Sequence record: PP400786
Source: Escherichia phage FL12
Reading direction: 5' to 3' (one strand)
Length of the DNA stretch: 64,000 nucleotides
Shown: positions 15,569 through 59,166 of the stretch, piece after piece
Position numbering within the stretch: the first letter of the stretch is position 1
Layout of the letters: each line of letters opens with the position of its first letter
The notes under the pieces: model-generated
What the model was told of the DNA's origin: nothing
Databases searched by the model: none
What the model saw: only the letters and a program-made list of their open reading frames with translations
Program-made: the position numbers and the translations under genes

Positions 15569-15691
15569 ATTTTTCTCACATCTTACGGACGGTTAACTAC
15601 TTATACTATAACATTTTTACTTTAACTTGTAAACAACTTTATGTAAAAATGCTTTAAAAATTTCATGGTATAATGAATCTAAGTCCTTCCA

Positions 15692-16294
15692 TTATAGATT
15701 AAATCCTTCAAAATCAAGAGTATAGATAGTGTATGTTGAATACTTTTTGTACTCATATCTATCTGCAATTCTAAATACACTTCCAGCTGGTATCATTACT
15801 TCTTGTTCATCTGAAACTAATTCCATATTACGATAACGATGGCTATCTGGAAACTTAAAACTTGGACTATATTCTTTACAACGTAGAGCTTTTATAGCAT
15901 ACTCCTGGAAATTAAACACCATAGGAGCTTTGAATTCAAAAATAACTTGTGTGTTGTATTCTAATCCAGAAGCAAAATGTAGAGCTATATTTTTATCATA
16001 TGAAGCTGATACTACTTTATCAAATGTAATAATATCAATTCCTTGATTTAACACCTGTTTAGTCTCAACTGGAACACCTCTCCAAAGAGGTTTATCGTTT
16101 GGAACCAAACGAGATTTGATTATTTCATTTAACCAAGAATGATCGTCTGGCTTATTAGTAATACAATGAATTAAAAGTTCAATTTCGGATAAATTAAATC
16201 CTTCAGAAAGTAATTCTTCACGAATAGAAGCACGCACCGATGCATCCATTGATTTGATTTTAAAATCTTTTAATTGCATTGCTGAATATTTCAT
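15692..16294 (-). CDS. modA: ADP-ribosyltransferase ModA
   Basis: 200 aa as T4 ModA; R (LWRG), S-x-S and ExE-like (EQEVMIP) ART motifs; tandem with modB. Confidence 0.65.
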   Translation of the reverse strand: MKYSAMQLKDFKIKSMDASVRASIREELLSEGFNLSEIELLIHCITNKPDDHSWLNEIIKSRLVPNDKPLWRGVPVETKQVLNQGIDIITFDKVVSASYDKNIALHFASGLEYNTQVIFEFKAPMVFNFQEYAIKALRCKEYSPSFKFPDSHRYRNMELVSDEQEVMIPAGSVFRIADRYEYKKYSTYTIYTLDFEGFNL

Positions 16295-16926
16295 TCAACT
16301 ACCTCAATATCATACACTTTAAATGTTCCAAACGAATCGTGTAATTTTTCTTTTGAAATAGAAGTTATTTTATACTTTCCAATTGGAATCATCCATTCTT
16401 GTTCACGTACAATCATCATTAAGTTATCAGTACGTTCTGAATCTAATCCATCTGTATCTTCATATGTATACTTAAACTCAGTATTAGGAGAAGAAAGTAT
16501 AATATCGCTGATATGGTCAGAATAATTAAAAGCTTTATCAGTTTTTAAGCGAAATATTATTTCAGTGAAATACTCAAAATAAGAAAAACCACATGCTGTG
16601 TGCAAACTAGTAGTAAATGAATCTACTCTGTTCGTTGAAAACACTTCTCCGACTTGTAAATCTTTAATGAGTTCTTTTGTCGATTTTGATATACCACGAT
16701 ATAACTGATAAGGCGATTTAGTTAAATGCTTTTTAACGATTTTATTCAACTGTTGATGAAGAGCTTCATTCTTTTTGGCTTCCATACATTGCCAAAGAAC
16801 TGACTGTTCAAAGTCAGTAAATTTTTCACAGACCTTTTTATACATATCATATTGAAAATCAACACTTTCAGCTTTTATAGATAATTGTTCAACATCTGCA
16901 AGATTAATAATCATGATAGCCTCCAT
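16291..16926 (-). CDS. modB: ADP-ribosyltransferase ModB
   Basis: 211 aa; paralog of ModA (QLYRG, EQEWMIPIG). Confidence 0.65.
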   Translation of the reverse strand: MEAIMIINLADVEQLSIKAESVDFQYDMYKKVCEKFTDFEQSVLWQCMEAKKNEALHQQLNKIVKKHLTKSPYQLYRGISKSTKELIKDLQVGEVFSTNRVDSFTTSLHTACGFSYFEYFTEIIFRLKTDKAFNYSDHISDIILSSPNTEFKYTYEDTDGLDSERTDNLMMIVREQEWMIPIGKYKITSISKEKLHDSFGTFKVYDIEVVE

Positions 16927-16939
16927 ATACTTCAGAAGC

Positions 16940-16971
16940 TATCATATCATTGTTAGGAAGGAAAGTAAACA
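16940..16971 (-). promoter_or_regulatory. T4-type early promoter upstream of modB
   Basis: Minus strand GTTTAC plus 18 nt plus TATGAT. Confidence 0.4.
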
Positions 16972-16981
16972 ACTTTTTGAA

Positions 16982-17164
16982 TTATTTTGCCCAGGGAGCC
17001 CAGGGCGGAGGGTCAAGATGGTATGAAGCTAGTTCTTCTAGAAGAGCATCTGGGGCTTCAATTCCATAATTCTGTAATACTATACGGTACTCTTTCTTAT
17101 AATCACTAGAATCATTCTGGATATTCGTAGAATGATTATCTTCTAACATCTCAAATAAATCCAT
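16982..17164 (-). CDS. hypothetical small protein
   Basis: 60 aa ORF. Confidence 0.4.
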   Translation of the reverse strand: MDLFEMLEDNHSTNIQNDSSDYKKEYRIVLQNYGIEAPDALLEELASYHLDPPPWAPWAK

Positions 17165-17172
17165 ATTAATTC

Positions 17173-17655
17173 CTAGCGATAAAAACCAAACCGACGATTA
17201 GTTTCAATAATCTTTCTTTCTTCTTCGGACATTCTCCAGCGTAGTCCAACATCAAAATGAGCCCAGACCATCTTAACAAATGCATTTATATCTTTAATAT
17301 CTTCAATAATGAATGTTTTACTTTTAGAAGGTTGACCTGCTAAATTAAGTGCTAATTTAACTTTATCGTCTTCAAACATGTCAAAAAGACCATATTCATG
17401 AGCTCTTTTATAGCCTTTAATAGTTAAAGCTTCGGAAGAAGAAAACGGTGAATCTGTATTCTGCAAAATATCTTCAGTATGCTTTATAATTAGAATAACA
17501 TTTTCTGGATATTTTCTTTCTTTTATATCTTTAATTAAAATATCCGGATTTTCTGCTAAAGGAATAATTAACGAGCATTTTTTATCAAGTGTATTTACTG
17601 ATTTACCTTCTTTAGACATAAATTCTATTGAATAATGTTTTGCTACTTCAATCAT
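17173..17655 (-). CDS. hypothetical protein
   Basis: 160 aa ORF. Confidence 0.5.
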
Positions 17656-17808
17656 GGGATTTCCTTTTGCCTACTAATGGACCATCGGGAATTTTGTTTT
17701 CCTGAATGTATTTCTCATTTTCTTCCATCATTTTACTACCGATTTTAAGAAGCAAATCCAAGGCTTCATTTGCTTTTGCTTTGGCCTCTTCTAACGTCAT
17801 ATCTTTGC

Positions 17809-18012
17809 TCATGATTTATCACCGTAAATATCTCTCATTAATTTAAGAGCTGAGCGCTCTAATTTCTTTTCTTGCTCAGCTTTAATCATAGATTTCATCC
17901 ACTCTTCTGATTCGTTCTGCATTTCTTTATTTGCTTGTTCAACCCAGCCATCGTCAATATACATTGAGTTTGATCTATTGAACCATTCAAGCATTTTCTT
18001 CAGAACTTTCAT
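17809..18012 (-). CDS. hypothetical small protein
   Basis: 67 aa ORF. Confidence 0.45.
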
Positions 18013-18821: not shown

Positions 18822-19027
18822 TACAAAAAGCCTCTCTTGAATTCGACTTGCTTTTCGCCATAATCATATCGAATCTCTGCATTAAATTCGACAGAACCAT
18901 CTGCGTACATCATAAATGAATGCACAACAACTTCTGTGGACCATGGCTGCAGTTCATATTTCTTCATTACATGCCGTGAAATGATAATATCTAAATCTTC
19001 ATTTGGTTTAATCCAACGATTTAACAT
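18821..19027 (-). CDS. hypothetical small protein
   Basis: 68 aa ORF. Confidence 0.45.
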   Translation of the reverse strand: MLNRWIKPNEDLDIIISRHVMKKYELQPWSTEVVVHSFMMYADGSVEFNAEIRYDYGEKQVEFKRGFL

Positions 19028-19052
19028 AGTGCTCTCCTCTATAAGATAATTC

Positions 19053-19084
19053 TATTATACCATACTCATTTTGATATGTAAACT
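19053..19084 (-). promoter_or_regulatory. T4-type early promoter
   Basis: Minus strand GTTTAC-ATATCAAAATGAGTATGG-TATAAT. Confidence 0.5.
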
Positions 19085-19098
19085 GCAAAAACGAAAAA

Positions 19099-19118
19099 AG
19101 GAACCCCGAAGGATTCCT
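19099..19118 (-). terminator. UUCG-tetraloop hairpin after soc
   Basis: Imperfect stem around CUUCGG loop; U-rich tail. Confidence 0.5.
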
Positions 19119-19124
19119 TAAATT

Positions 19125-19382
19125 TTAACCACCAATACCTGGAGTTGGCGTAACAGTCCAAAGACCTTCATTAGCAGTAATCCATTCAGTACGCTGATTT
19201 TCTTCATATACTGTAGAATATGCTGCTTTTTCAGAAGGGAATGTCTGATAATGAGCACCAGAAATTTTGTGAACATCAGAATAAAGAGGGAAAGCTACAG
19301 AAATTTCTTTACCCTGAATTGTACCACCATCAACTGCTTGGTCAAATGTTTTGATATTAACATAACCGCGAGTACTAGCCAT
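19125..19382 (-). CDS. soc: small outer capsid protein Soc
   Basis: 85 aa; N-terminus MASTRGYVNIKTF... matches remembered T4 Soc; TATAAATA late promoter upstream. Confidence 0.8.
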   Translation of the reverse strand: MASTRGYVNIKTFDQAVDGGTIQGKEISVAFPLYSDVHKISGAHYQTFPSEKAAYSTVYEENQRTEWITANEGLWTVTPTPGIGG

Positions 19383-19398
19383 GTAATTCTCCTTTTAT

Positions 19399-19608
19399 TT
19401 AAATTACATGATTATTTATAATAAATTCTCGCGGAACGTTAAAATATCCGATTTTAGTTAATATAACAACATCACCGTTAATAATTACCGGAGAATAATC
19501 TTCTGGAGCATTAAATTTCCAATGGGCTCTAATATTATATCCATCAGAACCAAATGCTCGAGTAGCCGGTCTCCCGGCTTTTTGCCACGCGTAGAAATCA
19601 AATTTCAT
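19399..19608 (-). CDS. hypothetical small protein
   Basis: 69 aa ORF. Confidence 0.45.
   Translation of the reverse strand: MKFDFYAWQKAGRPATRAFGSDGYNIRAHWKFNAPEDYSPVIINGDVVILTKIGYFNVPREFIINNHVI
19414..19421 (-). promoter_or_regulatory. late promoter TATAAATA upstream of soc
   Basis: Plus-strand TATTTATA about 35 nt upstream of soc start; soc is a capsid (late) gene. Confidence 0.5.
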
Positions 19609-19805
19609 TTTGAATGCTCTATAATTAATTTTAAGGCTTCTTCGCTGACAAAAATTTCGTCAGGACCTTCTTCTATAACCCAATCAACCATACGAAGTTG
19701 ATTAGTTAAGAGCTCACATACGAGCTCCTTGTTATAATCTTTAAATAGCTGGTTAATACGTTTCTTATGGGCTTTCTTAAGCTGACGCTTATTTAAACGA
19801 GCCAT
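19605..19805 (-). CDS. hypothetical small basic protein
   Basis: 66 aa ORF. Confidence 0.45.
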   Translation of the reverse strand: MARLNKRQLKKAHKKRINQLFKDYNKELVCELLTNQLRMVDWVIEEGPDEIFVSEEALKLIIEHSK

Positions 19806-20323
19806 TAATAACCTCGGTCTTGACGAGCGAAGTTTTCAGCATTTTTCAGGTAATAAAGTTTAAAGATTTCTTCAGCTGACATTCCAAGAGCAATAAATTT
19901 ATTCATGAAAAAGTGAAATTGGTCAATCAGTTCAAATTTAATTTCAAGCTGATCTTCGGGAGATAAATCTTGAATTTTCTTGGATTGCATTTCAGAATAA
20001 CGTTTCTTCCAAGGTTTCCATACAGCAGAAGCTTCTTTTTCACCATTACTCATACCACCAAGAGAAGTATATAGTTCGCGAGTTTCATCTGCGATATAAT
20101 CGTCTTGGTTTCGCAACCAAGCAAGAACTTCTCCTGCGGTTTCAAGTGAATCAGGATGACGATTTGTTTCTGGTTTATCATTAGCCAAACGAATCTGTAA
20201 ATGCCGCTGCATATCAAGCATAACCTGCAGTGGGTCAATATTGTGCATAATATTCTCAGCATATGCACGATTTGCTTTATCAACACCTTCGATCAAATGA
20301 GCACATTCATTAAAGTAAGCCAT
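19805..20323 (-). CDS. 56: dCTP pyrophosphatase gp56 (MazG-like)
   Basis: About 172 aa from internal ATG (MAYFNECAHL...); all-alpha NTP-PPase-like; ORF-track N-terminal extension reads into the intergenic promoter. Confidence 0.65.
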   Translation of the reverse strand: MAYFNECAHLIEGVDKANRAYAENIMHNIDPLQVMLDMQRHLQIRLANDKPETNRHPDSLETAGEVLAWLRNQDDYIADETRELYTSLGGMSNGEKEASAVWKPWKKRYSEMQSKKIQDLSPEDQLEIKFELIDQFHFFMNKFIALGMSAEEIFKLYYLKNAENFARQDRGY

Positions 20324-20394
20324 TATTTTTCCTTTCAATTCATGGGTTAGTAGATTAATTATACAATAAATATATAAAGCAATAAGGAGGACAT

Positions 20395-20595
20395 ATGGTA
20401 CAAAAATTAATGGCACTTGTTAATGCCATAAAAGGTAATAAAAAACGTATAGCTTTTACTATTTCTGCTATGGTAGGAATTTTACTCTGGAACTTTATTC
20501 TATCACCTGTTGCAATTGCGCATGGTATTAATATTCCAGTAGTTACTCTTGATACATTTGTAGATTTAGCATTTGCTTTAGTTGGGTTGATTTAA
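20395..20595 (+). CDS. small membrane protein (only convincing plus-strand gene in window)
   Basis: 66 aa with two hydrophobic helices; perfect SD AAGGAGG 5 nt before ATG at 20395; stop overlaps gp61 stop convergently. Confidence 0.6.
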   Translation: MVQKLMALVNAIKGNKKRIAFTISAMVGILLWNFILSPVAIAHGINIPVVTLDTFVDLAFALVGLI

Positions 20596-21620
20596 ATCTT
20601 AGCATATTTAGATAGCCGCATTTTAGCCATCAACCCCTGGGCAATATTATTTTTCATATATTCCATAATTTGTTCAGGGGTTGCACCTTCCTTTCTAATC
20701 ATATCATTGACATCTTTTGATTTCCAGGGAGATTTATCCCAAAACATAACCCTTTCTCCTGCATCAACTAATTTAGTCATTCGTTTGATAGTGTCAGGGT
20801 GACGAGGTTCATTATCTAAAACCCACACTCGTCTATCTTTAAATGGAACAACTTCTAGGTCTAATTGACCACCTGTAATAGCTATACCATTTTCAATAAA
20901 AAGTGAATCTATAGGTCCTTCTAGAACATATACATCACCATCTTTAACTCGTTCAACTCCATAGATTTTTGTTGCCTCAGGATAAGCTTTGATGGTGATA
21001 TATTTTTGAGGAGCATCTTTCTTTAATGCACGTCCTTGAAAAGACTCAGCTTTTCCATTAGCATTATAAATTGGAATAACAAGACGAGGCTCAGATATTT
21101 CCTTTTTATATGTTCCCGGTGCTATACTATTAACTAATTTAGGCCATTCGGTTGTAAACCAAAGATATTTCCATTTATCCTTTGGAATACAACGAGCTTT
21201 TACGTATTTTATAATTGGGTGGTCTTCCGCCAGTTTATCTAATCTAACACATGACGGAAGAGATTTAATTATTTTCTTCTCAGGTTGTTTAGGAAGTTCT
21301 TTAGGTTTTTCTACTGGACGACTTTTACCTTTTTCTTTTCTTATTTCAAAGATATACTCACGATATAAATCAGGTTCAAACTCCTTTAAATATATTCCGA
21401 TTGGTGCATGATAGTTACAGTTATAACAATGAATATTTCCTTCATTATTATCACCATAATACCATCCACGAGCTTTATTCTGGTCGGTTTTTGAATCTCC
21501 ACAAACAGGGCATCTAAACCGCAATTTAAAAGTTGAACTATTATTTACTTGTGTGAATTTAGGTAAATGAGCTAATGCACGGTATGCAAACTCATTATCA
21601 ATCCAAGGTATTGATGACAT
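20592..21620 (-). CDS. 61: DNA primase gp61
   Basis: 342 aa as T4 gp61; N-terminal zinc ribbon CPVCGDS...CYNC; Toprim region. Confidence 0.85.
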   Translation of the reverse strand: MSSIPWIDNEFAYRALAHLPKFTQVNNSSTFKLRFRCPVCGDSKTDQNKARGWYYGDNNEGNIHCYNCNYHAPIGIYLKEFEPDLYREYIFEIRKEKGKSRPVEKPKELPKQPEKKIIKSLPSCVRLDKLAEDHPIIKYVKARCIPKDKWKYLWFTTEWPKLVNSIAPGTYKKEISEPRLVIPIYNANGKAESFQGRALKKDAPQKYITIKAYPEATKIYGVERVKDGDVYVLEGPIDSLFIENGIAITGGQLDLEVVPFKDRRVWVLDNEPRHPDTIKRMTKLVDAGERVMFWDKSPWKSKDVNDMIRKEGATPEQIMEYMKNNIAQGLMAKMRLSKYAKI

Positions 21621-21622
21621 TT

Positions 21623-21787
21623 TTACTCTTCTTTTTCTTTAGATTCCTCTTTTTTCTTTTTAGGAATCTGCTCAGGACCTTTATTTACTACAGCGCCTGA
21701 CGTTGTTCCAGTAGAGATATTTTCAGGATTACCACCTGAATCTCCAGCGACCATATCTTCTTTGATAAATTCTTTATATGTTTTCAT
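21623..21787 (-). CDS. hypothetical small acidic/lysine-rich protein (about 54 aa; hand-called)
   Basis: MKTYKEFIKEDMVAGDSGGNPEN...KKKKEESKEKEE; below ORF-track cutoff. Confidence 0.4.
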   Translation of the reverse strand: MKTYKEFIKEDMVAGDSGGNPENISTGTTSGAVVNKGPEQIPKKKKEESKEKEE

Positions 21788-21788
21788 A

Positions 21789-22130
21789 TTAACCTCTATT
21801 CATAAAAGCATTAAAAATTTGGTCATCAATAGATGGCGCAGTAATATTTTCTGCATCATTTAGCAAATCATTAATTTCATCAGATAGCATAACACATGTA
21901 CCTTTATTTCCTGTAATTGTTACTGCACAATTACGAACGTTTTCTTTATCAAATTTTAGGTTAATATTTTCGTAGTGAAAATCCTTTAATGCCGAATATA
22001 TCTTTAAAATGAAATTGTCTTTTACTACAATAAACCCAACCTCACTATTAAAACGTGGTTCATGGAAACTGTAATAAACCTTTTCATCTATAAAATCGTA
22101 TGAAATTTTTCCATTTTTAAATATGAAAAT
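21789..22130 (-). pseudogene. truncated paralog (C-terminal half) of the adjacent 210-aa gene; no start codon
   Basis: About 114 open codons ending ...SIDDQIFNAFMNRG, nearly identical to the C-terminus of 22146-22778 (...SIDDQIFNAFMNRD); about 45 nt of near-identical DNA at both 3' ends; no in-frame ATG/GTG. Confidence 0.5.
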
Positions 22131-58775: not shown

Positions 58776-58779
58776 AATG

Positions 58780-59166
58780 TTATTCGAGGGAAAGAAGATA
58801 CTTACTCTGATAAAACATTCCAGTAATATCATCTATCGTGCTTTGGATGGCTGGAGGCATTTCTTTATAAATGCTGTTAGATTGGTCTAGTATGCGATCA
58901 ATCATTTTAATTGTGTCGGTAGGAAGTTTACTAGCATCTGGAATTGAAGGTGTGTATTTTCTACCAGAATACCCCAAATATTGCTCACCAAATTTATCAA
59001 TCAAATCTGGCAACTCGGAGAAAATAAAATCGTATGCTTTGTGTCTAGCATAACTTTTAGTTTCAAAATGTGCAGAATGAAAATAAGCTTGTGCAGCCAT
59101 TAATAAACCTAAGTATTCATCTGCCTTTGAAGGTTTTCCACTTTGTGAAAAGTCGCTGAATTTCAT
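58780..59166 (-). CDS. hypothetical protein
   Basis: 128 aa; followed by UUCG hairpin. Confidence 0.5.

Follow-up and report, generated by a model that had tools for sequence, protein, structure and literature searches.

A single short open reading frame (ORF) runs on the plus strand through a block of minus-strand genes in Escherichia phage FL12 (sequence record PP400786), which raises the question of whether it is a genuine gene and, if so, when it is expressed and what its product does at the envelope. The stretch of DNA analyzed, from now on referred to as the window, comprises 64,000 nucleotides of this T4-type phage of the genus Tequatrovirus, and all coordinates given are window positions unless another genome or locus is named. 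Gene order in the window is that of the T4 early region (ac, ndd, rIIB/A, 39, ... soc, 56, 61, sp, dmd, 41, ... 43, ... 55, ... rI, tk). The 1.9 kb around the ORF share 99.2% identity with Escherichia phage AV122, the closest annotated relative, and match 547 phage records. Going by the AV122 annotation, the 66-aa ORF is the only plus-strand coding sequence among the approximately 128 that cover the window, in agreement with the original prediction of a single plus-strand gene in a minus-strand block.

The ORF was predicted to be the only one on the plus strand with a strong Shine-Dalgarno (SD) sequence, at a spacing of 5 nt. When the plus-strand starts of all ORFs of 35 aa or longer were scanned, one matched the 7-nt SD consensus, that of the 66-aa ORF. 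The uniqueness of the signal stands, and its spacer is corrected to 4 nt. An AGGAGG-type SD is retained upstream of the ORF in the 11 lineages compared. The second-best plus-strand SD of the window (AAGGAG, 4-nt spacer) precedes a 37-aa ORF at 58777-58890 (+), which lies inside an annotated minus-strand coding sequence and is probably spurious. The gene diverges from gene 56 and converges on the primase gene, gene 61, with overlapping stop codons as described: its TAA occupies 20593-20595 (+), the TAA of gene 61 is the complement of 20592-20594, and a TTAA is common to both. A divergent gap between gene 56 and the ORF exists as well, its length being 71 nt (20324-20394) and not the 70 nt originally given. 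A longer, 203-aa form of gene 56 starting at a GTG at 20416 and overlapping the ORF start was rejected as an artefact of ORF calling, gp56 of T4 and other relatives being 172 aa long; the true start is likely the ATG at 20323, which yields this length. This long form (19805-20416, -) is annotated in at least one public genome (Phaginator gp32).

Table 1 Features of the locus in Escherichia phage FL12 (window coordinates).
Feature	Coordinates	Strand	Details
66-aa small membrane-protein ORF (PHROG 2024, subfamily A)	20395..20595	+	ATG start, TAA stop included
Protein sequence stretch of the 66-aa ORF			MVQKLMALVNAIK...
Shine-Dalgarno AAGGAGG	20384..20390	+	4-nt spacer (ACAT), then ATG
T4 late-promoter-like -10 box AATAAATA	20365..20372	+	A at -13, AT-rich stretch after; 22 nt before ATG
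Gene 56 (dCTPase/dUTPase), divergent neighbor	19805..20323	-	ATG at 20323
MotA-dependent middle promoter (predicted), gene 56	20358..20381	-	TGCTTTA 20381-20375, 11 nt, -10 TATAAT 20363-20358
Gene 61 (DNA primase), convergent neighbor	20592..21620	-	Stop overlaps ORF stop in TTAA
Terminator-like hairpin ATGGCATTAACAAGTGCCAT + TAATTTTTGT	20400..20429	-	Downstream of gene 61, inside ORF codons 2-12

Residues 2-66 of the translated ORF match positions 1-65 of the 65-position profile of the phage protein family PHROG 2024 (E = 1.4e-31), and the same profile was matched by all 17 of the diverse family members tried. Searches with tblastn located the ORF in 692 phage records, 686 of which cover at least 80% of it, with protein identities of at least 90% within Tequatrovirus and of 44-57% in Mosigvirus and Gaprivervirus. 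Codon comparison yielded dN/dS values of 0.05-0.4, synonymous sites being saturated between genera. A HMMER scan of 1.84 billion representative proteins recovered only small proteins of 33-70 aa with the same core, and remote members (57-70 aa) retain a WN..P..G..LP..E pattern. The ORF is under purifying selection and is a real gene; the claim of a genuine plus-strand gene was borne out by the selection on its codons, its membership of a phage family and the number of phage records that carry it.

A chance frame in the 3' UTR of gene 61, conserved only by way of minus-strand terminator and promoter elements, would be the alternative to a gene. The T4 reference annotation does not include the ORF, and a terminator-like hairpin and a middle promoter, both on the minus strand, overlap or abut it. 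The hairpin (-8.9 kcal/mol, z = -2.8) is followed by a T-run, is identical in T4 and is annotated as a terminator in fPS-90, and it looks like the terminator of gene 61 doubling as ORF codons; an Rfam search over 19000-22000 returned nothing credible. However, the hairpin covers only 11 codons and is not kept outside Tequatrovirus, whereas all 66 codons are conserved. Since it is restricted to this genus, the hairpin was rejected as the cause of ORF conservation. Equally at odds with a chance frame are dN/dS values far below 1, invariant residues common to two paralogous subfamilies and to remote homologs, and a homolog located in an E. coli prophage away from any primase gene. Conservation, the shared core and dN/dS effectively refute a non-coding origin, which we regard as extremely improbable. 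Taken with the signals upstream of it, the ORF is very likely a real, conserved small membrane-protein gene, predicted to be expressed from its own promoter.

The gene lies beside the 3' end of the primase gene, opposite in strand to its neighbors, in every T4-like lineage examined, namely Tequatrovirus, Mosigvirus, Gaprivervirus, Klebsiella phage Marfa, the S16 group, the PKO111 type and three metagenomic lineages. This arrangement survives insertions on its left side (dam in T4 and Marfa, GIY-YIG endonucleases and other ORFs) as well as on its right side toward the primase gene, where a homing endonuclease is found in DK-13 and a 124-aa ORF in a further locus (L035). The synteny comparison with relatives that had been proposed as a check on the original prediction thus finds the antisense position beside the primase gene kept throughout. 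In length, position and strand the ORF corresponds to the PHROG 2024 or RB69ORF029w-type proteins of Tevenvirinae, found in hundreds of annotated T4-like genomes; no difference from these proteins was found, and the ORF is a member of this group. The RB69 copy was annotated in 2003 as 'RB69ORF029w hypothetical protein', and the exact window protein has already been deposited as 'hypothetical protein' (for example ACP30675.1) and occurs on 259 contigs. A literature search for a characterization of the ORF or of the PHROG 2024 family, including the names under which the ORF appears, found none. A profile search of the whole window for a paralog returned none, the best other match having an E-value of 0.037.

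T4 itself carries the gene at 17,738-17,938 of its genome, where dam and gene 61 are separated by a 309-bp 'gap', and 64 of the 66 residues are the same as in the window protein. An annotation of this copy was looked for in NC_000866, AF158101 and KJ477684 and is absent from all three; its exact sequence has no NCBI protein accession and appears only in Logan assemblies. A comparison of window positions 19382-20595 with T4 15,573-17,938 indicates that dam, located between gene 56 and the ORF in T4, and segF, located between soc and gene 56 in T4, are absent from FL12 at this place, and a tblastn search with T4 Dam found no match in the window. GATC occurs 69 times in the window, compared with approximately 199 occurrences expected from base composition.

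The family comprises two paralogous subfamilies. Type A, the T4 type, follows the pattern ..AIKGNKKR..LWNF..AHG..P.V.LD..VD.., and type B the pattern MGTLFYQIWKL..LWNLLVVPIAATQG..LPQVT.EH... The two occur singly or in tandem, in the order A-B in Gaprivervirus and B-A in a metagenomic lineage, while Klebsiella phage Marfa encodes type B only. Tandem paralogs are present at 1495-1901 of locus L009 (UPEC01), 2495-2901 of L016/L017 and 2805-3198 of L025, and the type B copy is disrupted in DK-13 and TH40. Across both types W32, N33, P38 and G44 are invariant, P48, V50 and G64 are nearly so, and position 53 is almost always acidic (D/E). Public product names in and around the family can be misleading, with UPEC01 (L009 1701-1901), SAKp28, OE5505 and the gp61.1 homologs of loci L002 and L003 among the records concerned: the type B paralog is called 'DNA packaging ATPase', one type A copy, met in a Foldseek search of BFVD, is labeled 'Holin' in UniProt without evidence, and the 54-aa gp61.1 is named 'major capsid (domain) protein'.

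Outside of phage genomes, an E. coli prophage integrated in yegD, and carried by 18 of 5,426 complete E. coli genomes, has a family member of 70 aa as its last gene. This member lies 1.5 kb from a T4-e-like lysozyme gene, encoded on the other strand, and from a DUF2730 gene. A SegE-like GIY-YIG fragment is also found near it.

Regarding the timing of expression, the box AATAAATA upstream of the ORF matches the T4 late box TATAAATA (-13 to -6) at seven of eight positions. The deviating A at -13 is the commonest natural variant, accounting for 9 of the 50 T4 late promoters listed (PMC2988020), and T4-like phages show poor conservation of the T at this position (PMC1524935). In nine of the 11 lineages NATAAATA is located 16-33 nt upstream of the start codon, with a perfect TATAAATA in Marfa. 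T4 early and middle transcripts all have one polarity, from which that of late transcripts may differ (PMC2988020), and the ORF runs opposite to the early and middle polarity in the window. Transcription of T4 late genes depends on gp55, gp33 and gp45. Three unrelated sequence contexts border the gene on its left side within Tequatrovirus, and homology always sets in at the box itself. The sequence ATAAATA is depleted three-fold in the window (13 observed, 42 expected), and TATAAATA likewise occurs 3 times where 11 copies are expected, one minus-strand copy being located at 19413-19420 just upstream of soc; depletion of both would fit a selective disadvantage of stray late promoters within the early region.

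Against a late promoter, a published HMM scan of RB69 lists 31 late promoters, none of them upstream of ORF029w. A position-weight matrix built from 20 published RB69 late sites was overfitted and uninformative, and it was left unused because the perfect Marfa TATAAATA scored poorly. A sigma-70 promoter scan gave no enrichment over shuffled sequences and no plus-strand site upstream of the ORF, and a literature search for expression evidence (transcripts, start sites, ribosome profiling and proteomics) found none. Based on the conserved box and on polarity, the ORF probably has its own late promoter, and late, gp55-dependent timing appears likely.

On the minus strand, gene 56 has a predicted middle promoter whose spacer contains the late-like box. 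The TGCTTTA and TATAAT elements of this promoter, separated by 11 nt, have the canonical form of a T4 middle promoter dependent on MotA. The promoter precedes the ATG of gene 56 by 34 nt and has a homolog just ahead of gene 56 in T4, at the place where the T4 record locates oriA; middle promoters have been predicted at the equivalent place in RB69 (Pm:16038) and fPS-90 by independent annotators. The expectation that the divergent gap carries promoters for both directions is in accordance with this arrangement, in which a predicted MotA-type promoter on the minus strand and a predicted late-promoter variant on the plus strand are interleaved and could be mutually exclusive. Conservation of the ATAAATA box merely as part of the gene 56 promoter spacer was considered and rejected. 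In T4 the spacer of the gene 56 promoter is without the box while the ORF, 1 kb away beyond dam, retains it, which assigns the box to the ORF rather than to the promoter of gene 56.

Downstream of the ORF no convincing plus-strand terminator was found, the nearest weak candidate being located at 21218-21231, and read-through into gene 61 is therefore probable. We propose that the ORF would be transcribed late by gp55-containing RNA polymerase from its own NATAAATA box, giving a transcript with a short leader and a strong ribosome-binding site that may continue as antisense RNA into the primase gene. This raises the alternative that the RNA is the main product, a late transcript antisense to gene 61 with the peptide being secondary; in FL12 the late promoter could in addition occlude the overlapping gene 56 middle promoter. 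The lack of an intrinsic terminator and the location of the late box inside the middle-promoter spacer would suit such a role, and in T4 there are several sites where transcription is known to use both strands, each at its own time (PMC2988020). However, purifying selection acts at the amino acid level down to identities of 20-30% and the strong SD is conserved, both of which show that the peptide itself is selected. Moreover, the gene persists where the homing endonuclease of DK-13 or the 124-aa ORF separates it from the primase gene, and also where, as in T4, dam separates it from gene 56. We consider it improbable that RNA is the main product.

The predicted protein has a molecular mass of 7.1 kDa, a pI of 10 and a GRAVY score of 1.25, with two hydrophobic segments at residues 19-42 and 47-66, in line with the 66-aa hydrophobic protein originally described. 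Five lysine or arginine residues precede residue 19 and none follow residue 18, whereas the C-terminal part contains D53 and D57, resulting in a charge asymmetry of +5 at the N-terminus and -2 at the C-terminus, which ends in ...AFALVGLI. An AlphaFold2 model based on a 20-sequence alignment (pLDDT 78.5) contains helices at residues 2-12, 16-42 and 52-63. The proposed small two-helix membrane protein finds its counterpart in the long helix 16-42 and the short C-terminal helix 52-63, an arrangement that would allow for either one or two membrane crossings. The N-terminus is very probably cytoplasmic. A sequence search of solved structures gave only spurious matches to acetylcholine receptor transmembrane helices, Foldseek found no match in the PDB, and in BFVD it retrieved the family itself only.

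A Pfam scan of the window protein returned no match at E-values up to 10. Three family members, though, show sub-threshold matches to PF11351 'GTA_holin_3TM' (E 0.03-0.1) over model positions 66-117 of 123, the best scoring 15.3 bits against a gathering threshold of 24.8 bits. One family member matches the holin family phrog_3427 (E = 5e-4), and a tblastn search with a remote member found the 'GTA-like holin' of phage Pan1 and a protein of Rhodobacter phage RC1. A search for related loci with the RC1 holin-like protein found none. For comparison, seven PF11351-like proteins were assembled, that of Pan1 and six from Mu-like phages of the alphaproteobacteria Rhodobacter, Rhodovulum and Sinorhizobium. 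Six of the seven genes are located directly downstream of an endolysin or lysozyme gene; that of Pan1 is annotated 'GTA-like holin' and has no endolysin annotated beside it. Alignment of the family with these seven proteins by hhalign gave a probability of 93.9% (P = 1.6e-7) over 49 columns and placed both hydrophobic segments of the T4-type protein on positions 102-151 of the 170-aa proteins. The score of 43.6 was not reached in any of 200 full-column shuffles (maximum 18.1) or 200 within-segment shuffles (maximum 22.2). Restricting the family to synteny-verified T4-like members gave 89% (P = 2.2e-6), and the probability falls to 49% with subfamily A alone.

The features shared with PF11351 proteins of the RcGTA rcc00556 type are, in order, a basic stretch, a transmembrane helix, a W-N pair, an L-P-P-x-P-x-(D/E) motif and a second hydrophobic, Gly-containing segment. 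The ORF protein, however, is 66 aa long compared with about 170 aa and is without the N-terminal domain of approximately 100 residues, and the ORF is flanked by genes 56 and 61 with no endolysin gene adjacent, unlike six of the seven PF11351-like genes. A member would be expected to score above the Pfam threshold, to be ~120-170 aa long with three hydrophobic segments and to adjoin a lysis cassette. The ORF family departs from all three and is therefore not a PF11351 member on grounds of threshold, length and architecture, and context. Judged from the profile comparison, true but distant homology to the PF11351 membrane core is on balance favored. The holin role of PF11351 itself mostly rests on rcc00556 being called a putative holin (PMC3423380).

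Holins in general release or activate endolysin by way of timed inner-membrane lesions, and they typically carry a hydrophilic, highly charged C-terminal tail, a feature absent from the ORF protein. Class II holins or pinholins of the phage 21 S68 type are 60-70 aa long with two hydrophobic segments; going by this comparison, the ORF protein resembles them in size, in its two hydrophobic segments and in its probable late expression, but its charged region is N-terminal and not C-terminal, it is not part of a lysis cassette and no sequence relation was found. T4-like phages use an unrelated holin, T, and T4 t-null mutants do not lyse. In the classical T4 rapid-lysis screens, to our knowledge, no gene was mapped at the ORF locus. 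Since t-null mutants do not lyse and these screens mapped nothing here, the ORF protein is probably neither a sufficient holin nor a strong antiholin.

We hypothesize that the basic N-terminus with its five lysine or arginine residues would stay in the cytoplasm while residues ~19-42 span the inner membrane, and that the acidic hydrophobic segment 47-66 may either form a tight hairpin back through the membrane or lie on its periplasmic face. Late in infection, the protein could oligomerize or bind a membrane partner at the envelope via the conserved W-N...P...G...P face, and in this way might modulate lysis or membrane integrity, though not as a stand-alone holin. A role in lysis or envelope permeability is our leading guess from the sequence relationships, a tentative one. 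More specifically, and with less confidence still, the protein might be a component of T4 lysis control, that is, a minimal 'holin-core' protein tuning the triggering of the T holin, lysis inhibition or depolarization, with an A/B pair in some lineages; we think this rather unlikely.

Alternatively, the protein may be an accessory envelope factor unrelated to lysis, acting in superinfection exclusion, in protection against a membrane-acting defence or in the inhibition of a host membrane protein, in which case its likeness to the holin core would reflect shared ancestry or convergence of a transmembrane packing motif. Small envelope-acting T4 proteins such as Imm, Sp, RI and Ac, several of which are encoded in the window, offer a parallel, but their genes lie on the minus strand in the window, while the ORF is on the plus strand and no paralog of it was found. 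Subfamilies A and B have been gained, lost and duplicated in individual lineages, as is typical of genes for host interaction, and we know of no r-type or lysis phenotype that maps to this position of the T4 genome. The position of the 70-aa member as the very last gene of the yegD prophage is a typical 'moron' position; the context is nevertheless ambiguous because of the nearby lysozyme and DUF2730 genes, and fits either a lysis-related or an accessory 'moron' reading. The T4 exclusion proteins Imm and Sp, on the other hand, are products of early genes, whereas the polarity of the ORF would allow only late expression (PMC2988020). We hold an accessory role outside lysis to be possible and about equally likely as a lysis-modulating one.

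While the family itself is already widely annotated, three points are new: the T4 reference lacks the gene, a late promoter probably precedes it, and its product has a putative distant relation to a holin core. T4 is a reference organism, and proteomics, CRISPRi and transposon screens and transcriptome analyses draw on its curated annotation; a conserved gene missing from that annotation is invisible to all of these. The locus also illustrates how compactly regulation can overlap, with a late-like box interleaved with a predicted MotA middle promoter, an apparent terminator within codons and convergent stop codons that share their bases. If the relation to holins reflects function, a second membrane-active protein related to lysis would have gone unsuspected in T4-type phages, and should a part in lysis control prove true, one of the best-studied lysis systems would gain a new component. 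If the relation is not a functional one, the ORF would still represent a widely conserved family of membrane proteins, predicted to be late.
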